Shown here: one piece after another, positions 1,291-64,000 of the stretch
Layout of the letters: the number at the start of each line of letters is the position of its first letter
Position numbering within the stretch: the first letter of the stretch is position 1
Assembly: GCA_963772455.1 (NCBI GenBank)
Contig: CAVYXJ010000011.1
Location: 64,001-128,000 of the forward strand
Reading direction: 5' to 3'
Origin: Candidatus Bathyarchaeota archaeon
Lineage (GTDB): Archaea > Thermoproteota > Bathyarchaeia > Bathyarchaeales > Bathycorpusculaceae
DNA: 64,000 nt
Translations under genes and position numbers: made by a program
Notes under the pieces: generated by a model
Databases searched by the model: none
What the model was told of the DNA's origin: nothing
The model's input: the letters and a program-made list of their open reading frames with translations, nothing else

Positions 1291-1842
1291 TTGGACAAGA
1301 ATCCGCAATCAAAAGATGATGCCCTCGAGGCGTTAGACTTTATCGTAAACGTTCTAAAAGAACATGAAAAAGACCTCGACAAACTCATCAATGAGCTTGC
1401 AACAGTCACCGAACAAATTGGCGACACGGGCGAATTAAGCGGCAAGGTTGATAAAGTTGAAACAAAAATAGAAACACTACAAAAAGAAGTAACAAACCTA
1501 ATTGGACAACTATCATCAAAATCCAAGGAAACATTGCCACTAGAAAATAACAAGATACAACAAGATGAAGTGAATGAAGTCGTTAAAACCTTCGACCATT
1601 CTGTAATTATTAACTGCAAACAATGGGAAGATTTCCTAAATTTGGCAGTGAAAGCTCAAACTCTATCTTTTAGCTATAATGAGGAAGAAAAGATTTTTCA
1701 AGCTAATGCAATTAAGGGTAACCAATTTATCACCTATAACGGTGAACTTCCGAAGCTTTCTTCTATTTTGAAGATGTGGCTGTCTAAACAGTTGGATATT
1801 CCAGACCGTAACATTTTGGAAGGAAAATTAACTGTAGGATAA
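1291..1842 (+). CDS. Hypothetical protein with N-terminal coiled coil
   Basis: 183-aa ORF, heptad-rich N-terminus, GAGGAG upstream of TTG. Confidence 0.7.
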   Translation: MDKNPQSKDDALEALDFIVNVLKEHEKDLDKLINELATVTEQIGDTGELSGKVDKVETKIETLQKEVTNLIGQLSSKSKETLPLENNKIQQDEVNEVVKTFDHSVIINCKQWEDFLNLAVKAQTLSFSYNEEEKIFQANAIKGNQFITYNGELPKLSSILKMWLSKQLDIPDRNILEGKLTVG

Positions 1843-2285
1843 ATCATTATTTTTACTTCTTATTTTCGCTTCATAAATTATATATTAATTTTCTGTCATC
1901 ATGAATCTTGTTAGTGATTGGAGGGTTGGTTAAGGTTGAAGGTTAACCAGTATGCCAAGATACAATTTCCGTTTTCGAAGCCTTCTCCTTTCTCCTCGAT
2001 ACGGATGGCTATTGGATGCCAATACACATAACCGCCCTTCATAAACACTAACTAAAAATATCCAAAATGAATTCTAAGATATCTACAATTTAGATTTATT
2101 TGAATTGGTTTGACTCAGTCAGGGATCTTGCGATTTGCCTTCATAATTTTTTATGTAGAATAAGGATTATTATTTATTATCCGAGCAAAAAGATACGTTT
2201 TTATTAAAAAAACTCGGACGCTAATTTGGACAAAGTATTTAATTGCTACTTCATACCTCTCCGTTTACGCTGGTGCAAGAATCGC

Positions 2286-3365
2286 TTGGAATCTGTTAAG
2301 CCAAAATTGAGTTGGAAGACTGCGGTTTTTCCTTTACTTGGTTTAACAGGTTTTTTCATTTACATTTACTTGTTCCAAGTGGATATTTTAGGCATCATAG
2401 CCACTGCCCAAACTGCTAATCCATTGATTTACGCAGTAGCCATTTTATTTGGTTTACTGGAAGTTTTGTTTTTTACTATTTCTTGGCGGGAACTAACCAA
2501 TTTCCTCTCAATAAAAATGAGTATTGGTAGAGCTTACCTATACGTTTGGTATGGTCTATATGTTGACACAATTGTTCCAGCACAATCTATAAGCGGGGAG
2601 GTGACCCGAACCTACCTGCTTATTCGAGATAAATGTGGACCGTTTGGAAAAATCGTGGCATCACTCTTCGCACACAGGCTTTTGGGCATGGCAGTAAACG
2701 TTATTGCATTAATCGTTGGGATAATAATGCTTTATTTTGGTGGGCAAGCCTCTCCGCTAGTTTTTAACCTAATAATAATTGTGGCTACCGCAATAACAGC
2801 AGTTATCGCTTTGATGGTTATACTCTCGTACAAGCAACAGTGGACACTTAAAGTAATCACTTGGACTACAAGACTTGCACAAAAAATAACATTTGGAAGA
2901 TGGAAACCAGGAAAACTAAAAGATCAAGCAATCGAAATCACAGATCACTTTCATAACGCAATGAAAGAGTTTCGTCATAACCCAAAATCTGTTGTCACCT
3001 CATTGTTTTTCTTATCAGTAACCTGGATTTTTAGTTTAAGCGTCCCTTACTTAGTATTCCTATCGCTTGATCATCCTGTTTCATGGAGCATGATTCTCAT
3101 AACTTCATCTATAGTTCTAGCTGTAAAAGCAATTCCAGTAGGAATACCCTTTGAAGTGGGGCTTCCGGAAGCCGTGATGACGACACTTTACTTTTCAATG
3201 GGGGTTTCTGCCGCACTTGCAGCCACTGCGACAATCCTTGTAAGAATTATTACTTTGTGGATGCGCTTCTTTATTGGCTTTGCTGCCCAACAATATCTCG
3301 AATTAAGACCAGCCATATCCGCAACTACAAACCCAGAAAAAACTAAAATCCATCCTCAACTCTAA
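2286..3365 (+). CDS. Flippase-like UPF0104/lysylphosphatidylglycerol synthase TM protein
   Basis: Multi-TM; VPAQSISGEV.R.Y and IPVG...G.PE motifs; start TTG 2286 preferred over 2226. Confidence 0.8.
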   Translation: MESVKPKLSWKTAVFPLLGLTGFFIYIYLFQVDILGIIATAQTANPLIYAVAILFGLLEVLFFTISWRELTNFLSIKMSIGRAYLYVWYGLYVDTIVPAQSISGEVTRTYLLIRDKCGPFGKIVASLFAHRLLGMAVNVIALIVGIIMLYFGGQASPLVFNLIIIVATAITAVIALMVILSYKQQWTLKVITWTTRLAQKITFGRWKPGKLKDQAIEITDHFHNAMKEFRHNPKSVVTSLFFLSVTWIFSLSVPYLVFLSLDHPVSWSMILITSSIVLAVKAIPVGIPFEVGLPEAVMTTLYFSMGVSAALAATATILVRIITLWMRFFIGFAAQQYLELRPAISATTNPEKTKIHPQL

Positions 3366-3385
3366 TATTATTTTAGACCCACTAA

Positions 3386-3835
3386 ATGGAAGTAAAAATC
3401 GAAACCGCAACCATCACATTCCTCGACAAACTTTTCGAAATTGAGGAACAATGTTTTGATCAAGAAGCCTTCTCAAAACGCCAAATATCCTACTTACTAA
3501 CCGACTACAATACAATAGCTTTGTTGGCTAAAATAGACAAAGATATTGCAGGATTTATCATTGCCCAAGTTGAAGTCGAAGAAAACACTGAGTTCGGTCA
3601 TATAATAACAATCAATGTAGCACCAAACTATCGCCGTAAAGGAACCGCTACTAAATTTCTAATTGAAATAGAAAACCTTCTAAAACAAAAGGGCATAACC
3701 CAGTGTCGCTTAGAAGTTCGAGAAGATAACAAACCTGCTATAAAACTTTACCAAAAACTTTGTTATCAAACGGTGGGGGTTCTTGAAAACTATTATGGAA
3801 GAAAACATGGTCTATATCTAAAAAAAGTTTTATAA
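3386..3835 (+). CDS. rimI: RimI-like N-terminal acetyltransferase (GNAT)
   Basis: GHIITINVAPNYRRKG, LEVREDN..AI.LY, NYY motifs. Confidence 0.8.
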   Translation: MEVKIETATITFLDKLFEIEEQCFDQEAFSKRQISYLLTDYNTIALLAKIDKDIAGFIIAQVEVEENTEFGHIITINVAPNYRRKGTATKFLIEIENLLKQKGITQCRLEVREDNKPAIKLYQKLCYQTVGVLENYYGRKHGLYLKKVL

Positions 3836-3922
3836 ATTAATAATCCGTCGCTTTTAAGCGCTATCTCAGTACGGAACAATGTTTAAAAGAAATGATGCGG
3901 TACAAACCGATGGTGGGGAGAG

Positions 3923-4192
3923 ATGGGAGAAACCCGAGGAAGAAAATCAAACGAGCAGACCCTTGTCCAAACCATAGTTGTTTTAATCCGCAACACCACT
4001 TGGCGATGTGGTAAGCTTGAAAAATCCATAGTCAAGCACCTCTATAAGCGTCATGAAAATTTTGGCAAACCAGGTGTCTCGATTAGGGACATTATGCTCA
4101 ATCTAAACATTACAGGCGAGAAAAAAGATGAATGTTTAGATGCGTTACGTAGGCTTGAAAAAAGAAATATTGTGAAATTAACGCTGCTCTAA
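3923..4192 (+). CDS. Small hypothetical protein, possible winged HTH
   Basis: 89-aa ORF ending ..ALRRLEKRNIV; GGAG upstream. Confidence 0.6.
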   Translation: MGETRGRKSNEQTLVQTIVVLIRNTTWRCGKLEKSIVKHLYKRHENFGKPGVSIRDIMLNLNITGEKKDECLDALRRLEKRNIVKLTLL

Positions 4193-4250
4193 TTTTCTCT
4201 TTATTTTTGCAAGCTATTTCGAAAAAGGTCTTAATAAAATATTTTGTGAT

Positions 4251-5630
4251 TTATTTTAGTAGCTCAGTCTCGCTTGGGGGTTGCTTTATCAAACCATGTC
4301 TCATTAACAACTCAGTTGATTCCCTCGCATTACTAATTATTGCAGAAGCACGTTCATACAGCTCTTGCCTGCTGGGTTTTATTCGAGCAACGCCTTGTTC
4401 AATAGATTTCAAAGCACAGGCAACGGCTTCTTTGGGAAATACTTCCCACTCATCCATCCTTGGCAAAATATCTTTTTCGTTCATTCCTCGTTCTTCGGCA
4501 TATTTTGCCAGTTCTTGGGCTGCTGCAATACACATATCATCAGTAATTGTTTTTGCTTTAACATCTAGCACGCCGCGGAAGATTCCTGGAAAACCAAGGC
4601 TGTTATTGACTTGATTTGGAAAATCACTTCGTCCAGTTGCAACAATTCTCGCTCCTGCCTCTTGAGCATCCCAGGGCCAAATTTCAGGAATAGGATTAGC
4701 GCAAGCAAAAACTATTGAATCTGTAGCCATTGTTTTTATCCACTCTTTTTTTATTGTATTTGGACCTGGTCTTGAAGCTGCGACTACTGCATCTACGCCT
4801 TTGAATGCAGCTGCAACATCGCCCGTTCGACCTTCACTGTTGGTTTTTTGGGTAACGTCGTATTTCCAAGGGTCTTCTTCTTGTGTGACATCTGCCCTTC
4901 CTTTGTAAATTATACCTTTGCTATCAGCAAGAATTATATTTCCTGGTTTTACACCCCACTTCATTAGCACATAAGCCGTCCTGATATTTGCGGCTCCTGA
5001 ACCTACAAGAGTAATGAGGCTTTCCTTAGGCTTCTTACCTACGAGTTTGAAAGCATTAATCAAACCTGCTAAAATCACAGTCGCCGTTCCTTGTTGATCA
5101 TCATGCCAAACTGGAATTTGCATATGCTCACGTGCTTTCTCAAGCACATGGAAACATTTTGGTTTCTCAATATCTTCAAGATTGATACCGCCAAAAGTCG
5201 GCTCTAATGCTCTACAAATCTTAACAATTTCATCAGGATCCTTAGTTCGCAGGCAAATTGGAAACGCATCAACGCCTCCCAGATACTTGAACAAAAGAGC
5301 CTTTCCTTCCATAACAGGCAACGCAGCTTCAGGACCAATATCACCTAGACCCAGAACACGTGTTCCGTCGGTTACTATTGCTACATAGTTCCAGCGATTG
5401 GTTAATTCGAATGATTTATCGGGGTTTGCTTGAATTTCTTTGCAAGGTGATGCTACACCTGGTGTGTACCAGATTGCAAAGTCGTCTGTGTTTCTGATAA
5501 CACATTTGGGAATGACCTGCATTTTTCCCTCGTAGAACTTGTGCATTGGAGAAGAAAGTTGCGCTGGCTTTTTGGCTTTTGCAAGCAACTCTTCTACGGT
5601 TGGTTTATCATCAATATTATCAGGAACCAT
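4251..5630 (-). CDS. NAD(P)-dependent malic enzyme
   Basis: YTPGVA, VMEGKALLFK, INLEDI, HDDQQGT, ATGRSDFPNQVNN. Confidence 0.95.
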   Translation of the reverse strand: MVPDNIDDKPTVEELLAKAKKPAQLSSPMHKFYEGKMQVIPKCVIRNTDDFAIWYTPGVASPCKEIQANPDKSFELTNRWNYVAIVTDGTRVLGLGDIGPEAALPVMEGKALLFKYLGGVDAFPICLRTKDPDEIVKICRALEPTFGGINLEDIEKPKCFHVLEKAREHMQIPVWHDDQQGTATVILAGLINAFKLVGKKPKESLITLVGSGAANIRTAYVLMKWGVKPGNIILADSKGIIYKGRADVTQEEDPWKYDVTQKTNSEGRTGDVAAAFKGVDAVVAASRPGPNTIKKEWIKTMATDSIVFACANPIPEIWPWDAQEAGARIVATGRSDFPNQVNNSLGFPGIFRGVLDVKAKTITDDMCIAAAQELAKYAEERGMNEKDILPRMDEWEVFPKEAVACALKSIEQGVARIKPSRQELYERASAIISNARESTELLMRHGLIKQPPSETELLK

Positions 5631-15938: not shown

Positions 15939-16743
15939 TTGAATGATAAAATCACTGTGATAGGCGCAGGCATGATGGGTAGCGCCATAATTAAAAGCCT
16001 AATTAAAGGCAACTTCTGGTGGCAAGATAACTGCTGTAGATATTGCACCTGAAAAACTCAAAGACCTGGAAAAGCTTGGAGTAAAAATTACATCGGATAG
16101 CCGAAAAGCAGTCGCTGATTCAGACATCGTTTTCATCATTGTTAAACCCGGAGATGTTGAAAAGGTTCTCAAAGAAATTGCCAAAGAAATAAGGGGTAAA
16201 CTTCTCATTTCTGTTGCGGCTACTTTGCCTCTTGCTTTTCTCCGTAAAAACGCATCTGAATCTCGGATTGTGCGAATTATGCCTAATCTTGGTGCTTTGG
16301 TTCAAGCTTCGTATACAGCTTATTGTTGCGAACCAAATGTTACTAACGAAGATAAAGAAAAAGTCAAAATGCTTCTAAATATGATGGGAATCTGCGATGA
16401 AATGGATGAGAAGTACATGGATGCAATCACCGCTGTCAGCGGTAGCGGACCAGGCTACATATCGATCATAATTGAAGCGTTAACTTATGCAGGGTTGAAA
16501 GTTGGGTTGCCAAGAAATATCGCCCTATCAGCAGCAGCTCAAACTGTAATGGGCACGGGTAAACTAGTTATCGATTTGCATGAAGATCCAGCGAAAATTA
16601 AGGATATGACTACTACCCCAGGAGGAACAACAATTGAAGCTATCTACCAGATTGAACAATCTCAAATTCGACCTGCAATGATTCGCGCTATTGAAGAAGC
16701 CACCAAAAAAAGCCAGACTATTAGAGAAAAACTAAATGTATGA
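15939..16743 (+). CDS. proC: Pyrroline-5-carboxylate reductase (+1 frameshift at about 16001-16017)
   Basis: N-terminal VIGAGMMGSAI in upstream frame; RIMPN, SGSGPGY, TPGGTT in downstream frame. Confidence 0.88.
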
Positions 16744-19613: not shown

Positions 19614-19802
19614 GTGAGGAGAAGGAGAATGGAAGCGGACATTTTGTTTAGCATGCGAGAGATTAATTGTAATCATCGGAAACAGGAATTGTACACTCAA
19701 AGACGTTTTGATATCTTAAACGGGTTTGAATTTAAATTAACTAGATGCATTAATTGCCATAAAATTGTAGAGTTAGAAACAAAGAAATTTTCTAAGTGTT
19801 AG
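19614..19802 (+). CDS. Small putative Zn-binding protein
   Basis: CNH ... RCINCHK. Confidence 0.5.
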   Translation: MRRRRMEADILFSMREINCNHRKQELYTQRRFDILNGFEFKLTRCINCHKIVELETKKFSKC

Positions 19803-20214
19803 TCTTTTGGTCTTTGGAGTATAGGTAGAGTTTGCCTTTTTTTAGCTGATCTAGTGCATTTTGTGTTTCTAATGATGTTAGTTTGCAAGTTTTTGGGTTT
19901 TTTAGAAATGGAAGTTCTTCAGGTGCATTCTGGATGATATGAAGATCTTCCCATGTAACTTTGAGGTCTTCTGAGGGTATATTTGTGTTAACATCCATGG
20001 CCCATGCGCCTGCATCTAATTCGTCACCTTCCGGTAGGGCTGTGAATGGACCAAGCAGACTTTTATCCTCAAGGTTGTATAGGAAAATTATTGAACCAAC
20101 CTTGATTTGATCTTCGTTGGGCTTAGTTTTTTCATCCGCACAGGTGTATCGTTTATTGCTTAGGCATTGCTGTTGGGATGTTTTGTTACAATAAAATACA
20201 TATCCGTCATACAT
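19792..20214 (-). CDS. DCD-domain-like (PUA/EVE-related) protein
   Basis: GYVFYCN....QCL, IKVG..IFLYN......GPF.A.....LD.GAW matches the DCD pattern. Confidence 0.65.
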   Translation of the reverse strand: MYDGYVFYCNKTSQQQCLSNKRYTCADEKTKPNEDQIKVGSIIFLYNLEDKSLLGPFTALPEGDELDAGAWAMDVNTNIPSEDLKVTWEDLHIIQNAPEELPFLKNPKTCKLTSLETQNALDQLKKGKLYLYSKDQKTNT

Positions 20215-20350: not shown

Positions 20351-21767
20351 ATGAGCTTTCAAGACTGTTTCAGTTGCTAAGTTCGGCGGGAGTCTTCTTG
20401 ATGTCGAAGGCAAAGGAATCCCAAAAATAATCAAGCGAATAGCTGAAATCAAAGATAACGATGCTCATGGATCAATAGCTGTTTTTTCGGCACCAATGGG
20501 CTGCACAGATGCTCTCATAAAAATAGGGGAGTCTTATGCGCAAGCTTGTCAACAACCTTTGGATCCTGTTTTTGAAGTCTATCACAAATTAGCCGGGATT
20601 TATGTTAAAGGAAAATGGCTAAAACATGCCAAAGAGGAATTAGCTAATTACAAGGCTTTGACCCAAGCTACCCTAGACTCAGTGAACAAACGTTTCAGCG
20701 GAAATATCAAAGCCCGAACGCTCACCTTAGGAGGGGAGCTTGCCATGTCTATGCTTATGGATTACATTCTAAAAAGTCATGAAATAGATTCATTTAATCT
20801 TTCCATGGAAGACTGGCCGATTGTTACTGACGACAATTTTGAAGATGCCTTACCAAATTTTGAGTTAAGTAAGAAAAAGATCCATACCCTAATCGCTCCC
20901 TTAGAAGAGAACAAAGTTGTTTCGATGGCAGGTTTCTTGGGAGTCACAACAGACGGACTCGAAACAATCTTAGGTAGGGGTGGATCAGACTTAACTGCTG
21001 TTTTCACTTCTTGCCTTCTTAAAGATGTTTACGCAATAAAAACTCTACTTTATAAAGACGTCCCGATTCAAAGCGCTGATCCCAAGGTTGTGAGAGGACA
21101 AAAAACTGAACACGTTAGTGCATTAACCTACAATGAAGCACATAAAGCTTCGATGATGGGTATGAAAATTGTACAGAGCCCAGCTATTGCAATGGCAAGA
21201 CGTTTTAGTCAACCATTAGTAGTTGTACCAATCGATGAACCAAAAATGCAATCTGTCATTGAAGCTGAAACAACAGGTGGAGAAGTTGTAAAATGCCTAA
21301 CTGGCAAGTCCGGCTGCGCAATTCTCTCCATGAATGATGAGAAAAGCCGCTCGCTCGAAGATTCCTTGCGTATATGGGAACGAAGAAACGACTTCATGGA
21401 TTTAGGCGCTGAAACTATGGAAACAGGAGAGCGCATCCGCGATTTCCTTTTCTTAGATTCAGAATTTCTAAAGAAAAACGAAGAAAAAATCAAGGGGTTC
21501 GATGAAAAAATGCGAATAAATTATGGTTTAGGTGTTGTTACGTTAATTGGTGATCGAATGAAGGATTCACCTGGTGTAGCTTCTTTAGCCATAAGTGCTA
21601 TTTCAGGCATCAATATTAAACGTGGAATCTTTGCACCGCACACATCGCAGATTATTTTAGTTGTTGAGGAAAAAAATGTTAACGCAACGGTCGCTGCAAT
21701 TCATCAGAAAAAACAAGAACTTAACAAAGGTCCTACCTGGCCTATGGGTTTTCAGTCATCAGCTTGA
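20351..21767 (+). CDS. lysC: Aspartate kinase (start ATG offset by +1 indel at about 20358)
   Basis: VAKFGGS, GFLG, LGRGGSDLTA, ADPK.V, C-terminal ACT (IGDRMKDSPGV). Confidence 0.88.
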
Positions 21768-53465: not shown

Positions 53466-54470
53466 ATGCCTTGCTCAGTAATTGTTGGTGCCTTCTGGGG
53501 AGACGAAGGTAAAGGAAAAATAATTTCATATTTAGCTCTTAAAGATAATCTCGATTTCTGTGTTCGAACTGGCTCAGTTAATGCAGCTCATACAGTTTGG
53601 TATGAAGGCAAAAAATATGCTCTACATATGGTTCCAGCAGCTTTTATTAATCCAAAAACTCGTTTGTTAATAGCTGCAGGGGCAAATGTTGATGTTAAAA
53701 CGTTTTTTAGTGAAGTTGAACTTACTCAGGTTGCCTCAAATCGAATTGGGATAGATTTGAATGCTTCTATTATTGAGCAGAAACATGGTGATCAAGACAA
53801 AGCTAGTGCTGTTAACAAAGGAATAGGGACCACTGGTCGAGGTGTTGGACCTGCAATAGAAGAGCGTGTAAGACGCACAGCAAAGTTGGCTAAAGATATT
53901 CCTGAATTAAAACCTTACTTGGCTGACCAAGTTATGGAAGTTAACGATGGGTTGGATGCTGGTAAAAGTGTTTTGCTTGAAGGTACACAAGGGTTTATGC
54001 TATCGCTTTTCTTGGGTGGTGGCTATCCATATGTGACTAGTAGGGATACTGGTGCATCAGCCATTGCTTCGGAAGCTGGTGTTGGACCAACTAGAGTTGA
54101 TGATGTAATTATTGTTTACAAGTCTTTTATGACTCGAGTGGGCGCTGGACCGCTACCTGGCGAAATAACTAAGGAAGAAGCTTTGGAAAGGGGTTGGTTT
54201 GAAGTTGCCGCTGGAACAGGCCGCGATAGACGTTCTGCACCTTTTGACTTTGATTTAGCGAAAAAAACAGCTAAAATAAATGGAGCAACTCAGGGGGCAA
54301 TGACAAAACTTGATTGTATTTATCCATCTTGTAGAAGTGCCCGAAAATATAGTGATTTGCCCAAGGAAGCTAAAGACTTCATAAAAGAGGTTGAAACCAG
54401 AACTGGTGTGCCTATAGTTTTTATTGGCACTGGACCAGATGCCTTAGATTTAATTGATCGTCGGGCATAG
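53466..54470 (+). CDS. purA: Adenylosuccinate synthetase (short archaeal type)
   Basis: WGDEGKGK, NAAHT, GTTG.G.GP, EG.QG, YPYVTS, TRVG.GP, TKLD. Confidence 0.95.
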   Translation: MPCSVIVGAFWGDEGKGKIISYLALKDNLDFCVRTGSVNAAHTVWYEGKKYALHMVPAAFINPKTRLLIAAGANVDVKTFFSEVELTQVASNRIGIDLNASIIEQKHGDQDKASAVNKGIGTTGRGVGPAIEERVRRTAKLAKDIPELKPYLADQVMEVNDGLDAGKSVLLEGTQGFMLSLFLGGGYPYVTSRDTGASAIASEAGVGPTRVDDVIIVYKSFMTRVGAGPLPGEITKEEALERGWFEVAAGTGRDRRSAPFDFDLAKKTAKINGATQGAMTKLDCIYPSCRSARKYSDLPKEAKDFIKEVETRTGVPIVFIGTGPDALDLIDRRA

Positions 54471-54516
54471 CAACTTTTATTTTCTTTATTGTTTATCCAC
54501 ATTCAAGGCAAAGTCC

Positions 54517-55654
54517 ATGTTTAGATTTAAAAATTGCACCAAAGCTTCTGCAAGCATACTGATTTTGCTTTTTGTTGCAGGATTGCTTGTTGGAGGATTA
54601 CTCATATATTATGTATCTTACCGCCAAGTTTCTGGCTTGAATGGACAAATTACAAATCTGCAAACAGCAATCTCTAACTTGGAAGGTCACCAAAACTCCA
54701 CTATTCAAAATATCTCTATATTTCAAAATGGAACTTCGCTTGCAGTTATCTATTCTAATCTTAAGGATTCTGTGGTTCTAGTTCAAGGCGATACTGCTGA
54801 TGGAGGTGTGCAAGGTTCAGGTTTTGTTTATGATTTTGCGGGTCGAATGGTTGTGTTGACTAATTATCATGTTGTTCAGGATACAACTGATTTGAGTGTG
54901 ACTTTTGCTAATGGCAATGGCTATTCTGCAACTGTTTTAGGAGATGATGCGTATTCAGATTTTGCAGTTCTTTCTGTTGATGCTCCCGCTTTCGAGTTTA
55001 AGCCGGTAACAATTGTCAGTTCAGCTTCGTTGCGTGTGGGTGAACCAGTCATCGCCATAGGAAATCCCTACGGGCTAGGTAGGCTCCTTAACTACAGGAG
55101 TTGTCAGTGCTACTGGAAGAACCATAAATGAAGATACAGCTGGTGGATACGCAATTGCAAACATCATTCAGACAAGTACTCCTATAAATCCTGGAAATTC
55201 AGGCGGTCCACTTTTAAATGCTGTTGGGAACGTTGTAGGAATCACTGCAGCGATTGTTTCTGATTCCCAGGGACTTGGATTCGCGATTCCTTCAAACACG
55301 ATTTTAAGAGAAATATCGGCTTTAGTTAGAACAGGTTCATACAATGGGCATTCATATTTGGGCGTCCTAGGAGATGATATGAGTTTTAGTGTAGCAAAAG
55401 AAATGGGCTCAAACGTTACTTATGGGTGGAGAATTGTTACAGTTACAGCCTTGGGTCCCTCAGATGGTAAACTCGCTGTCAACGATATCATCATCGCTAT
55501 GAATGGTCAAACTATTAAAAACAATGAAGACTTAGCTAGTTACTTAGAAGAAAACACTATTCCGGGAGATAAGCTTGTCTTGACTGTTGAGAGAGCAAAA
55601 GAGCAAATTCCCATCACTATAACTTTGGGAACACGTCCGGCAGCTTCCTCATAA
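54517..55654 (+). CDS. htrA: Membrane-anchored HtrA/DegP-like serine protease with PDZ domain (+1 frameshift at about 55078)
   Basis: GSGF, TNYHVV, DFAVL, IGNPYGL / [10 protein letters not shown] in next frame, then PDZ. Confidence 0.88.
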
Positions 55655-62498: not shown

Positions 62499-62945
62499 GT
62501 GAAACGCTTATACCCTGACCAACCGGTTGTTGGCGTTGGCGCTGTAATAATCAAAGAAGGCAGTATAGCACTTATAAAACGCGGAAACGAACCCAGCAAA
62601 GGCAAATGGACCATACCCGGCGGATTAGTTGAACTAGGCGAAAACCTCGAAGCTGCAGTCATTCGCGAGACAAAAGAAGAGGTATGCTTAGAAGTCGAAA
62701 ACCCAACCTTGATGGGCGTTGTAGATAATGTAGATTTGGATGAGCAAGGCAAAGTAAAATACCACTACGTAATCATCGACTACCTCGTTCAAGTCAAAAC
62801 AGGAACTATCCAAGCTGCAAGTGATGCCGCCGAGCTACGTTGGGTTTCTTTTAGTGAAGTCGAAGATTATAATTTGACGGCTTCTTTTCGGGCTTTCTTT
62901 AAACAAAACAGGAAAAAATTAGAAAAGGCTAATTCTTATTGCTAA
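62499..62945 (+). CDS. Nudix hydrolase
   Basis: GG.VE.GE....A..RE.KEE. Confidence 0.92.
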   Translation: MKRLYPDQPVVGVGAVIIKEGSIALIKRGNEPSKGKWTIPGGLVELGENLEAAVIRETKEEVCLEVENPTLMGVVDNVDLDEQGKVKYHYVIIDYLVQVKTGTIQAASDAAELRWVSFSEVEDYNLTASFRAFFKQNRKKLEKANSYC

Positions 62946-63106
62946 AGAACGGACGTGTTTCTCCAAGTTTTTGATATCGAAGGCTTCAATCGGGCAACTA
63001 TGGGAAATCCTTGACAACTTTTCCCAAGCGTTAATCAGTGAATTGATGGCAAGTCTCGGAGGTGAACCAATAAGCACAAAAAAGACCGTCCACTAGAGGT
63101 TAAGTT

Positions 63107-64000
63107 ATGAGCCACTTCACTGTAAAGAGACCCGGAATATACGTAGAAGAAATAAGTTATCTGCCAAAGTCAATCGAAGGTGTAAGTACAAGTACCGCGG
63201 CGTTTTTGGGGGAAACCGAAACGGGCCCAATTACGCCAACTCTTGTTACCAGTTGGATGATTACCAGAGGTTGTTCGGCGGATATCTTGGCGGAGACAAA
63301 GTATTTGCCTTATGCGGTTGAAGGCTTTTTTCTCAATGGTGGCAAACGATGTTACGTATGCAGAGGTTAACAATTCGGATTATGCCGGGACTCTTGCGAA
63401 ATTGGAAACGGTTGAGGATGTTTCAATTGTTTATTGTCCAAATGCTCAAGCTGTGCTTGGACTTGCGGATTTGTTGATCGAGCATTGTGAACGGTTAAGG
63501 TACCGGTTTGCTATTTTGGATTCGGTCAAAGGTCAGAACATTTCAAGCGTGACTAAGCCAAAGGAATCAGCCTTCGCGGCATTATACTACCCCTGGATTT
63601 ACGTGAAACATGCTGGAACAGGACCTCATTGTCTAGTTCCGCCAGGCGGTCATGTTGCAGGAATCTATGCTCGAACTGACCTTGAAATTGGCGTTAATAA
63701 AGCACCAGCAAATGAAGTCGTCAGAGGCGCAGTGGATATAGAGCATACAATTAGCAACAATCAACAGGACAACCTTGTCCTCCAAGGCATAAACTGTATC
63801 CGCAACTTTGTGGGCAGAGGCATACGTGTTTGGGGATCAAGAACCCTCTCCATGGAGCCAACAAAAAAGTATGTTAACGTTTGTAGACTGCTTATTTATC
63901 TTGAGCAATCTATCAAAAAAGGAACTGCTTGGGTAGTTTTTGAACCTAACAATGCTGCAACGTGGGTCAAAGTAAAAACAGCAATTGAGAATTTCCTAAT
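63107..64000 (+). CDS. Contractile tail sheath protein (eCIS/Afp-PVC-like), frameshifted and truncated by the window edge
   Basis: PGIYVEE, F.G....GP...P..VTSW, AV.GFF.NGG..CYV; after about 63365: RFAILD, ALYYPW, VPP.GH.AG.YARTD, KAPAN, GIN.IR.F.GRG..VWG.RTL, YVNV.R, VFEPN. Confidence 0.88.

Follow-up and report, generated by a model that had tools for sequence, protein, structure and literature searches.

A gene for a contractile sheath lies at the 3' end of a 64,000-nucleotide stretch of DNA from Candidatus Bathyarchaeota archaeon (the window: positions 64,001 to 128,000 of contig CAVYXJ010000011.1, GenBank assembly GCA_963772455.1), and its place there raises the question of whether it opens a locus for a contractile injection system (CIS) or has another role in the genome. 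Contractile injection systems as described in PMC11566945 consist of a sheath-tube module on a baseplate, with their genes clustered. The comparisons reported here, which are comparisons of sequences, indicate that this gene, the one sheath gene of the source genome (G000; 92.4% complete, 24 contigs), does not open such a locus and probably belongs instead to a reduced, genome-dispersed CIS derivative.

A compact sheath gene of the Afp/PVC type

Positions 63107 to 64000 of the window are the 5' 894 bases of an Afp/PVC-type sheath gene of roughly 360 codons, which begins with an ATG at 63107 and reaches its stop codon 187 bases past the window (C11:128187); the gene is compact, at about 359 codons. 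The preliminary description had recognized such a sheath from motifs visible after correction of the frame, and every one of them is present: the translations contain PGIYVEE, FFLNGG, YYPW, PPGGHVAGIYARTD, KAPAN, VWGSRTL and VFEPN. In the frame-2 piece, Phage_sheath_1 (PF04984; 1.4e-22, 80.8 bits against a cut-off of 31.4) and Phage_sheath_1C (PF17482; 3.3e-13, 50.0 bits against a cut-off of 26.9) both score above their Pfam cut-offs, as they do in the orthologues. It was also right that outer domains are missing, yet the same architecture is normal for Pvc2 and Afp2. A profile of intact orthologues (A1), which the source genome enters with its C-terminal 276 residues only and whose collinearity is that of the orthologues, can be aligned from one end to the other with Pvc2 (355 aa; 2-356/2-352, 1.4e-75) and Afp2 (354 aa; 4-357/4-353, 1e-59), and with 9qgl_2A over 1-357/1-353; the collinearity of this profile with solved short eCIS sheaths includes the N- and C-terminal arms.

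The N-terminus of the sheath is more variable than the remainder. Between the source genome and its closest relative (G080) the first 50 codons are 58% identical and the remaining part (276 codons) 77%, because of which recombination or a chimeric join inside the gene was considered; it was not adopted, as the flanks are G080-like and collinear and the N-terminus varies between other orthologues too.

Table 1. Positions of the sheath gene pieces, the upstream neighbour and the partner genes. Positions are those of the window, except for the two genes on contig C21.
Feature	Position	Strand	Evidence and remarks
Nudix hydrolase gene	62499..62945	+	NUDIX 8.7e-20 (Pfam); upstream neighbour; orthologue flanks the sheath gene in relatives
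GAGGT, ribosome-binding-site-like	63096..63100	+	6 bases 5' of the ATG; sequence read directly, putative function
Sheath piece 1 (codons 1-50, MSHF...VTSW)	63107..63256	+	Frame 1; 57-65% identical to N-termini of intact orthologues
Sheath piece 2 (DDYQRLFGGYLGGDK)	63256..63300	+	Frame 3; entered via a one-base deficit at 63257/63258
Sheath piece 3 (YLPYAVEGFFLNGGKRCYVCR)	63302..63364	+	Frame 1 again; one surplus base at about 63301
Sheath piece 4 (VNNSDYAGTLAKLE..., core and C-terminal domain)	63366..64000, on past the window	+	Frame 2; PF04984 and PF17482
gp19-type tube gene	C21:67865-68263		PF06841 1.3e-40; intact 150-aa ORF; matches solved CIS tubes
DUF4255 tail terminator/cap gene (Pvc16_N, N-terminal domain of Pvc16/Afp16)	C21:67300-67803		PF14065 1.5e-33; intact ORF; adjoins the tube gene

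Frame breaks in the assembled copy

The source assembly does not contain the sheath gene in one uninterrupted frame: three one-base frame changes fall within about 110 bases, the last piece being entered after one surplus G at about 63365 (Table 1). Programmed frameshifting is out as an explanation, the signs of the changes differing (-1, +1, +1) and the orthologues having none. Contigs of related strains bear on the breaks. They come from four (X1, X2, X4 and X7) of 24 runs, are short and of low depth, and none spans the gene; word shares were small (at most 0.17) in all 24 runs, among which no RNA run is listed. Behind 63257/63258 such contigs carry an extra T (two runs, two studies); around the surplus base at 63301 a loose end of X4 has GACAAA running straight into TATTTG; and contigs from X1, X4 and X7 (three studies) show a net one-base difference over this region, of the sign that restores the frame. 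The source assembly is broken elsewhere as well. Frame breaks affect 5 of 32 orthologues of G080 genes, among them a leucyl-tRNA-synthetase-like gene (class-I synthetase with a leucyl editing domain) and an Oxidored_FMN gene split in three; a Trypsin_2/PDZ pair and a TrmB pair are further split genes. Because the related strains are in frame and 4 of the 31 compared genes other than the sheath are broken too, the three frame breaks are probably consensus errors of the assembly, and the organism would make an intact 359-residue sheath.

The principal alternative is that the copy in this organism is a real, recent pseudogene, made by three genuine one-base indels, with the tube and DUF4255 genes heading for loss and with the family and its arrangement otherwise as proposed here. 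Three changes within about 110 bases are more clustered than a uniform error rate would predict, yet the 276 codons that remain contain no stop and no further indel. The ratio of nonsynonymous to synonymous substitution (omega) on the path between the source genome and G080 (0.25) is somewhat above that of other pairs, but the terminal branch of the source genome in the sheath tree (0.15) is no longer than that of G080 (0.16). Decay is visible nearby and in relatives: the adjacent fasciclin gene is a remnant of 87 aa where relatives have 145-171 aa, and it is wholly deleted in related strains; the syntenic sheath copy of G012 is degraded, to 179 aa plus a stop, and that of G078 is shortened to 250 aa. 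Divergence from the related-strain contigs, about 8% in the 5' part and about 1% in parts of the 3' region, also fits a pseudogene. Set against these points, the related strains are in frame, the tube and DUF4255 ORFs are intact, and the frame breaks of this assembly are frequent, reaching even a synthetase gene that should be essential. Loss of the gene in this organism is considered unlikely, though not to a degree that makes it negligible. Without reads, a broken frame in this assembly is poor ground for calling a pseudogene. The preliminary description had named confirmed inactivating indels in a gene devoid of partners as grounds against its reading; partners exist, on another contig.

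Conservation and selection across the genus

Twenty-seven genomes supplied 29 sheath loci. Of these loci, 21 share a neighbourhood of the form FtsX-Nudix-(HerA-NurA)-sheath-(DinB/fasciclin)-HIT-FeS, and in 18 of the 21 the sheath ORF is intact, at 357-367 aa. The same Nudix/HIT neighbourhood of the sheath is found in 21 species of a soil Bathyarchaeota genus, and the 19 syntenic rows of the tree form one clade (SH-aLRT 100); the lone-sheath arrangement has been inherited vertically through the genus as one clade. Plainly degraded sheath copies also occur in the genus (G012 C5, G048, G088 and G054 C9). A 181-aa ORF upstream of the sheath gene in relatives belongs to no Pfam family; its C-terminus resembles a winged helix by eye only.

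Pairwise omega (NG86) is 0.09-0.17 for the sheath (7 of 21 pairs with finite dS), 0.07-0.23 for the tube (14 of 21 pairs) and 0.10-0.36 for DUF4255 (14 of 21 pairs), dS being saturated in many pairs; between the source genome and G080 it is 0.25 for the sheath (dS 0.53), 0.09 for the tube and 0.20 for DUF4255. By these ratios all three genes are under purifying selection. A solo domesticated sheath, which the preliminary description had offered as its second possibility, gains support from this selection together with the synteny in 21 congeneric species and the single clade.

The tube gene is present, unlinked, in 27 of 32 sheath-bearing genomes, at a distance of about 0.5 Mb from the sheath gene in closed genomes, and in 18 of the 21 genomes with a syntenic sheath; the other three show none. 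Across 81 genomes of the genus, 27 have sheath and tube, 5 the sheath only, 7 the tube only and 42 neither, a count that overstates the case because congeneric genomes are not independent samples. Retention or absence tends to be shared by sheath and tube. The accessory gene varies by lineage, with DUF4255 in some and a CIS_tube-like protein without DUF4255 in others. The closest relative, G080, keeps a mini-module of spike, PAAR and gp25 at a third locus, so reduction has not been uniform across the clade.

Partner genes and missing parts

The source genome has one tube gene and one DUF4255 gene, which are neighbours on a contig other than that of the sheath gene (Table 1). By sequence the DUF4255 protein has no match to solved structures at E 0.01 or better. 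Baseplate_J and GPW_gp25 have no match in the genome at E 1 or better and Phage_base_V none; Phage_GPD and PAAR were covered by tblastn with the proteins of congeners. When all ORFs of the full CIS loci of three congeners were used as tblastn queries, only sheath, tube, DUF4255 and generic AAA regions were found in the source genome, and the AAA ATPase of one of the three (G063) matched only generic AAA regions on C7 and C13 (27-28% identity, residues 416-680). The gp25, PAAR, spike and second tube-like proteins of G080 have no match at E 0.1 or better (tblastn). Baseplate genes are thus absent as judged by Pfam HMMs and tblastn, which very divergent or non-homologous parts would escape.

These parts are rare in the genus as a whole: Baseplate_J occurs in 7 and gp25 in 9 of 81 genomes, almost all of them with long-sheath full loci. 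None of Baseplate_J, gp25, Phage_base_V and Phage_GPD scores above its cut-off in G014 and G068, both closed, or in G008, G055 and G073; for Phage_base_V the count in these five high-quality genomes (two closed) is zero, and for Phage_GPD zero above the cut-off.

It is conceivable that the organism has a complete, working CIS whose genes are scattered on the chromosome, with baseplate and spike too divergent, non-homologous, or located in the unassembled 8%. The source genome is indeed only 92.4% complete, but the four baseplate and spike families stay below cut-off in the five genomes just named as well, closed ones included. Sheath and tube are kept jointly under selection though unlinked, and the spike-PAAR-gp25 module of G080 at its third place implies that CIS modules do disperse in this lineage; any match to a baseplate family, however, is found in only 2 of the 21 genomes with a syntenic sheath, one of the two below cut-off. 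The same Pfam models do pick up these parts in the full loci of congeners, and baseplate proteins from within the genus matched nothing in the source genome (tblastn). A scattered but complete machine is accordingly regarded as improbable.

Genomic surroundings of the sheath gene

All 77 ORFs of at least 70 aa picked in the window, the two sheath pieces included, were scanned against Pfam. The 63 kb upstream of the sheath gene are housekeeping; as the preliminary description had stated, the gene comes after a Nudix gene (Table 1) and no integrase, capsid or terminase lies upstream, since none of these and no portal protein was matched among the 77 ORFs. There is no tRNA gene in positions 40000-64000 or in the next 19 kb. 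The 22.8 kb downstream to the contig end contain the fasciclin remnant and genes for HIT, Fe-S assembly, ABC transporters, PEBP, UbiA, a tRNA endonuclease and a P-type ATPase, and in a Pfam scan of 24 ORFs there no tube, baseplate, spike, CIS ATPase, capsid, portal, terminase or integrase. Tube, baseplate and spike genes are thus absent by Pfam from 63 kb upstream as well as from 22.8 kb downstream. The downstream inspection for CIS as opposed to phage genes that had been suggested could be carried to the contig end, and neither kind is there: the head-packaging genes that would mark a phage do not appear. A chimeric junction near 63000 finds no support, gene order being collinear with G080 across it.

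That the sheath gene is the first of a local eCIS locus, the main reading of the preliminary description, or belongs to the tail module of a myovirus prophage, continuing past the window, finds support solely in its position at the window end and is refuted, as nearly as such a reading can be, by the 22.8 kb of downstream sequence in which only housekeeping genes follow, by the housekeeping character of the upstream 63 kb with no tRNA gene nearby, and by collinearity with relatives on both sides. For annotation, a sheath gene at the edge of a contig or window need not signal a CIS locus.

A probable reduced and dispersed derivative

The preferred explanation, a reduced derivative dispersed over the genome, would have arisen by the breaking up of an ancestral full CIS locus, of which the trunk module (sheath, tube and cap) was kept while baseplate and spike disappeared. 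Complete CIS loci belonging to the same lineage persist in some congeners. Loss of the sheath's insertion domain would date to the stem of the solo clade. All three proteins are envisaged as still assembling together, into a sheathed tube capped by DUF4255; a complex prediction for sheath and tube (alignments A2 and A3) bears on this neither way, scoring 0.00 in two runs in which the controls did not fold. Because there is no spike, baseplate or tape measure, a structural or contractile filament in the cytoplasm would be more likely than an injection device.

The working of a sheath-tube-cap set without a baseplate is something that we infer. In T4, the T6SS and eCIS, assembly of the extended sheath and tube depends on a baseplate equipped with both a sheath initiator of the gp25 type and an initiator of the tube, and for this reason we know of no assembly route for a baseplate-less set. 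Held under purifying selection through the radiation of the genus, at two unlinked places, the trio might, as a tentative suggestion that could well prove wrong, be a new kind of non-injecting CIS derivative that has dispensed with baseplate, spike, tape measure and dedicated ATPase and forms a baseplate-independent sheathed tube in the cell, cytoskeletal or contractile. It would then be a phage tail trunk domesticated without its trigger.

If sheath, tube and cap alone are kept under selection, either assembly can begin in the absence of any known baseplate or the tail trunk has a use other than injection, and both outcomes are testable with three small proteins. The case adds the Bathyarchaeota, an abundant uncultured group of soil and sediment, to the haloarchaea and methanogens as archaea with CIS-derived genes. 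A literature search of main article texts turned up no account of a Bathyarchaeota set that is dispersed or lacks a baseplate.

Comparison with known systems

Pvc2 and Afp2 are encoded in clusters of roughly 16 genes with tube, sheath paralogues, baseplate, spike, ATPase and cap. At 354-355 aa, Pvc2 (Photorhabdus PVC, PDB 6j0b) and Afp2 (Serratia Afp, PDB 6rao) are close in length to the archaeal sheaths (357-367 aa), are collinear with them and have the same Pfam domains; unlike the Pvc2 and Afp2 genes, the archaeal gene is a solitary one, and the searches above detected no baseplate genes in its genome. Sequence scores put the archaeal sheath closer to long sheaths that contain an inserted domain (9ezm, 8bky, 8bl4) than to Pvc2 and Afp2, and its shortness therefore looks secondarily derived.

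Haloarchaeal sheaths (Natrinema, Salinirubellus) share a well-supported clade with the solo sheaths. The top PDB match of the sheath profile is 9ezm_A (7e-137), a code contained in PMC11566945, where the membrane-bound CIS of Halogeometricum borinquense ("archaeal T6SS") is described as a cluster with 14 structural genes, baseplate included, that kills neighbouring cells on contact. The system considered here is likewise archaeal and of CIS type, but the searches recovered sheath, tube and cap alone, at two places, and the solo sheath is without the insert of roughly 200 residues. The sheaths of the Streptomyces cytoplasmic CIS (PDB 8bky and 8bl4; 1.1e-119 and 2.7e-117 against the sheath profile) are 534-539 aa long and have an extra domain. 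That CIS offers a precedent in that, according to PMC10066040, it acts inside the producing cell and not by injecting a target; its gene cluster is complete and includes a baseplate, unlike the set described here.

A sheath homologue from Bathyarchaeota is already known: a 321-aa protein of the "one-domain" type from a Bathyarchaeota MAG has been modelled (Evseev et al. 2022, PMC9230969). It shares the phylum and the short one-domain architecture of the present sheath, and the text of PMC9230969 concerned with it treats the protein model alone, giving no context, partners, conservation or selection.

Within the genus, the full CIS locus of G063 (C7:318-338 kb, roughly 20 kb) ends with DUF4255, CarboxypepD_reg, sheath (817 aa) and tube. 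Identities to the source genome of 72% for the tube, 44% for DUF4255 and 52-61% for the sheath ends place the two in the same lineage. G063 has in addition a second tube, a CIS_tube plus LysM protein, a GPD hub, a Phage_base_V spike, gp25, two Baseplate_J proteins, a PA14 protein and an AAA ATPase with a winged-helix domain, extra parts that by tblastn have no counterpart in the source genome beyond the generic AAA regions.

The polysheaths of T4 gp18 and T6SS VipA/VipB form without a baseplate, as contracted-state by-products, and to our knowledge they have no function. They are a precedent for a sheath polymerizing without a baseplate, as the baseplate-less set would require; unlike polysheaths, the sheath genes described here have been kept by selection across many species.

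The sheath gene and its neighbourhood

The gene that begins 894 bases before the end of the window encodes a contractile-tail sheath of the Afp/PVC-type family with Pvc2/Afp2 architecture. Matches to the Pfam profiles Phage_sheath_1 (1.4e-22) and Phage_sheath_1C (3.3e-13) are above cut-off, and the translations contain PGIYVEE, FFLNGG, YYPW, PPGGHVAGIYARTD, KAPAN, VWGSRTL and VFEPN, which confirms the preliminary description of a sheath together with every motif that it quoted. The stop codon lies 187 bases past the window, and the gene is therefore about 359 codons long. It is the only sheath match in the genome assembly (2.45 Mb in 24 contigs, rated 92.4% complete), in which the window corresponds to C11:64001-128000.

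The sheath had been proposed as the first gene of an eCIS locus, but the 22.8 kb that remain to the contig end refute this, carrying ordinary genes: a fasciclin fragment, HIT, an Fe-S assembly protein, two ABC transporter sets, PEBP, a zinc-ribbon protein, UbiA, DUF454, a nucleotidyl transferase, a tRNA-intron endonuclease, a class-II synthetase, a P-type ATPase and TrmB. The upstream ORFs of the window are likewise all cellular (among them malic enzyme, PFK, HMG-CoA reductase, CCA enzyme, HisRS, GlnA, NadA, a UMP-kinase-like gene, a MacB/FtsX pair and Nudix), and neither the 23 kb before the sheath nor the 19 kb after it contain a tRNA gene. Because of these housekeeping flanks and the lack of a nearby tRNA gene, the sheath is neither the start of a locus nor part of a prophage. 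One upstream ORF matches the DCD (Development and cell death) domain, a family mainly known from plants.

Coordinates of features in the window, in other contigs (C) of this genome and in fetched loci (L, own numbering); bare numbers are window positions
Feature	Location	Strand	Basis or remark
Sheath gene, first 894 bases	63107-64000	+	Pfam and motifs
GAGGT preceding ATG at 63107	63096-63100	+	read from sequence
Sheath piece, frame 1, ending VTSW	63107-63256	+	translation
Sheath piece, frame 3, DDYQRLFGGYLGGDK	up to 63300	+	translation
Sheath piece, frame 1 again, YLPYAVEGFFLNGGKRCYVCR	63302-63364	+	translation
Sheath piece, frame 2	63366 to stop	+	translation
gp19-type tube, 150 aa	C21		1.3e-40, intact ORF
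DUF4255/Pvc16_N (tail-terminator domain), 192 aa	C21, directly after tube		1.5e-33, intact ORF
OsmC-like gene	C21:68920-69354 (L005 15805-16242)		
TIR_2, near tube gene	L005 17324-17731	+	weak match, 8.8e-5, below cut-off
Fasciclin remnant, 87 aa	L001 1806-2069 = C11:128306-128569		profile 5-66 of 123, just past window
Stretch skipped by related-strain contigs, 508 bases	L001 1722-2231		two runs
Snf7-like (ESCRT-III-like), downstream of sheath	L001 11484-12131	-	weak match, 1.2e-4, below cut-off
DCD domain (PF10539), 140-aa ORF	19795-20214	-	4.7e-9
Trypsin_2 ORF, then separate PDZ_2 ORF	54454-55128, 55358-55651		Pfam scan
TrmB HTH ORF, then separate Regulator_TrmB ORF	L002 8788-9087, 9144-9692		Pfam scan
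P5CR_dimer alone	16225-16740		partial profile
AA_kinase 74-233	20496-21764		partial profile
Four multi-frame genes versus G080 (class-I synthetase with leucyl editing domain, 909 aa versus 960 aa in G080; Oxidored_FMN gene in three ORFs; two others), first two sites	C21:60630-63510 (L005 7521-10401), C21:64543-65562 (L005 11434-12453)		orthologues intact in G080
Same four multi-frame genes, other two sites	C7:93951-94488, C7:301627-303368		
HerA - NurA - 181-aa ORF block in congeners	L020 10656-13684, L132 about 1700-4700		examples
Second-clade short sheaths	L026 9104-10698 (G012 C13), L126 (G054 C6), L124 (G059 C4)		
G080 mini-module	G080 C13, L144 15645-16957		third locus

Frame breaks in the sheath gene

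Compared with intact orthologues, the sheath gene has a one-base deficit at 63257/63258 and single surplus bases near 63301 and 63365. These breaks are probably not real. Short contigs of related strains from public sequencing runs of two studies (X1 and X4) have an extra T behind the first site, an X4 contig reads straight through the second without the surplus base, and relative to this genome the contigs of X1, X4 and X7 all show a net difference of one base that restores the frame; all are low-depth contigs of other strains rather than reads of this organism. The closest relative, G080, has 32 intact ORFs whose orthologues here are at least 70% identical, and five of them match this genome in two or more frames (4 of 31 when the sheath is not counted), which points to frequent one-base indel errors in the assembly. 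The Trypsin_2/PDZ_2 and TrmB pairs, each apparently one gene interrupted by a frame break, point the same way. Several other window ORFs match Pfam profiles only in part.

Real and recent inactivation of this copy is favoured by the tight packing of three indels within 110 bases, by the adjacent fasciclin gene, a true remnant when compared with the 145-171 aa of its relatives, and by the degraded syntenic copy of congener G012; it is nevertheless unlikely, if well worth weighing, given the frame-restoring contigs, the many other frame-broken genes (the leucyl-editing synthetase among them) and a terminal branch of 0.15, equal to that of the intact sister G080 (0.16), with the remainder of the gene stop-free.

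Distribution and conservation of the solo sheath

The closest public sheath loci are those of Candidatus Bathyarchaeota MAGs (73, 64 and 58% identity), followed by contractile injection system (CIS) sheaths of Terriglobia, Methanobacterium, ANME-2, Methanosarcinales and haloarchaea. In a class sample 6 of 301 genomes have the sheath, all of the family of the window (0/252 in other families), and in an order sample none of 16 genomes of other families has it. The genus sample of 81 genomes contains sheath in 32, tube in 34, DUF4255 in 33, Baseplate_J matches in 7 and gp25 matches in 9; the evidence throughout is comparative genomics of metagenome-assembled genomes.

Of 29 sheath loci compared (from 27 genomes; the sheath ORF of G050 is absent from the ORF set used), 21 share the neighbourhood FtsX - Nudix - (HerA - NurA - 181-aa ORF) - sheath - (DinB, fasciclin) - HIT - Fe-S protein. 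The syntenic sheath is intact (357-367 aa) in 18 of these, the others being this genome, G012 (179 aa with a stop) and G078 (250 aa). The block of HerA, NurA and the 181-aa ORF is present in many congeners including G080 and missing in G000 (this genome), G005, G014, G058, G071 and G090; the 181-aa ORF lies immediately next to the sheath and is read in the same direction, belongs to no Pfam family and has a winged-helix-like end by eye. In a tree of 45 sheaths, from which G078, the G012 fragment, G050, G072, G017, G089 and G048 were left out and in which this genome is represented by its C-terminal 276 residues only, the 19 syntenic sheaths form one clade (SH-aLRT 100), with G080 as sister to this genome (78% identity). 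Sheath dN/dS is 0.09-0.17, with finite dS in 7 of 21 pairs and the rest saturated. Conserved neighbourhood, single clade and selection support the earlier suggestion of a putative domesticated solo sheath. Off the syntenic site there is another, distinct clade of short sheaths (363-382 aa, SH-aLRT 100); its members adjoin a tube gene in G012 and G054, with no baseplate genes nearby, and that of G012 sits among large PQQ_2/Ig-domain surface proteins. A short sheath of a Bathyarchaeota MAG was modelled earlier (PMC9230969); literature searches on CIS and tail sheaths in archaea and Bathyarchaeota returned no description of a solo, syntenic, baseplate-less arrangement.

Partner genes and the missing baseplate

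Intact tube and DUF4255 genes form a pair on another contig, with an OsmC-like gene and a membrane protein as neighbours. G001, G010, G012 and G080 have an OsmC-like gene between two ABC operons, 4-5 kb away from the sheath; that place is without it in this genome, and the 93-94% identical counterpart is about 0.6 kb upstream of the tube, a rearrangement linking the sheath and tube neighbourhoods. Baseplate_J, gp25 and Phage_base_V have no match in this genome at E 1 or better, and gp25, PAAR and spike of G080 and the second tube-like protein of other relatives have none at E 0.1 or better. When all ORFs of the complete CIS loci of three congeners (G063, G006, G045) were searched against it by tblastn, only the genes for sheath, tube and DUF4255 and generic AAA regions matched. 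Across the genus, Baseplate_J and gp25 matches are nearly all in genomes with long sheaths and complete loci (G006, G017, G045, G054, G063, G072, G089). Only 2 of 21 syntenic-sheath genomes have any baseplate match, G077 (Baseplate_J, below cut-off) and G080, and in five high-quality genomes (G014 and G068, closed; G008, G055, G073) Phage_base_V matches 0/5 and Phage_GPD is above cut-off in 0/5. The G080 match is a mini-module alone among housekeeping genes and absent from this genome, in the order Phage_base_V-like spike (206 aa) - PAAR-like (96 aa, by eye) - gp25 (123 aa), with 55-61% identity to G063 locus proteins.

Sheath and tube occur together in 27 of the 81 genus genomes, sheath alone in 5, tube alone in 7 and neither in 42, counts stated without a statistical test because congeners are not independent samples; the tube is present in 18 of the 21 syntenic-sheath genomes. 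The two genes are about 0.5 Mb apart in closed or nearly closed genomes (sheath and tube at 2.09 and 2.60 Mb in G014, 0.57 and 0.09 in G068, 0.12 and 0.73 in G055, 0.27 and 0.98 in G073, 0.24 and 0.73 in G090). Values of dN/dS are 0.07-0.23 for the tube and 0.10-0.36 for DUF4255, each with finite dS in 14 of 21 pairs and the rest saturated; the least saturated pair, this genome and G080, gives 0.25 for the sheath (dS 0.53), 0.09 for the tube and 0.20 for DUF4255. The tube always has a partner gene, either DUF4255 of about 195 aa (G000, G008, G046, G055, G068 and G073 among others) or, in genomes without DUF4255, a protein of 225-255 aa that matches CIS_tube weakly (G001, G002, G010, G014, G090). 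Neither kind is confined to one half of the sheath clade, a pattern that suggests differential loss. Sheath, tube and cap (or second tube-like protein) are a conserved, selected, unlinked set without a detectable baseplate. Thirteen genomes with neither sheath nor tube match DUF4255 in an open frame of about 290-315 aa (G009, G013, G016, G020, G044, G047, G051, G053, G056, G064, G092, G094) or 171 aa (G004), and the tail-terminator domain appears to exist independently as part of another protein family.

Possible product, origin and relation to complete systems

Sheath, tube and cap may still assemble into a sheathed tube, and, with spike, wedge, hub, tape measure and dedicated ATPase all lacking, the product would be an intracellular filament rather than an injection device. 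It is the baseplate that nucleates an extended sheath; sheath protein by itself forms contracted polysheath. In the weakest step of this proposal, assembly would be nucleated by the cap or another factor, or else a polysheath-like form would be the useful one.

The solo clade is nested, together with 12 other sheaths that all measure 507-817 aa, in a supported group (SH-aLRT 96), and the best PDB matches are also long sheaths, whose alignments fall into two blocks on either side of an insert that follows residue about 86. The most economical reading of this tree, which is poorly resolved and arbitrarily rooted, is that the family acquired a full CIS, that one copy was broken up, and that the insertion domain of the sheath was lost on the long stem (0.34) leading to the solo clade.

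As a system, the trio fails to show the defining features of a CIS cluster. The complete, canonical locus of G063, about 20 kb, consists of tube, 335-aa ORF, CIS_tube+LysM, GPD hub, Phage_base_V spike, gp25, two Baseplate_J proteins, a PA14 protein, an AAA ATPase with a winged-helix domain and a last module of DUF4255 - CarboxypepD_reg - sheath (817 aa) - tube. With this last module the proteins of the present genome share 72% identity in the tube, 44% in DUF4255 and 52-61% at the sheath ends.
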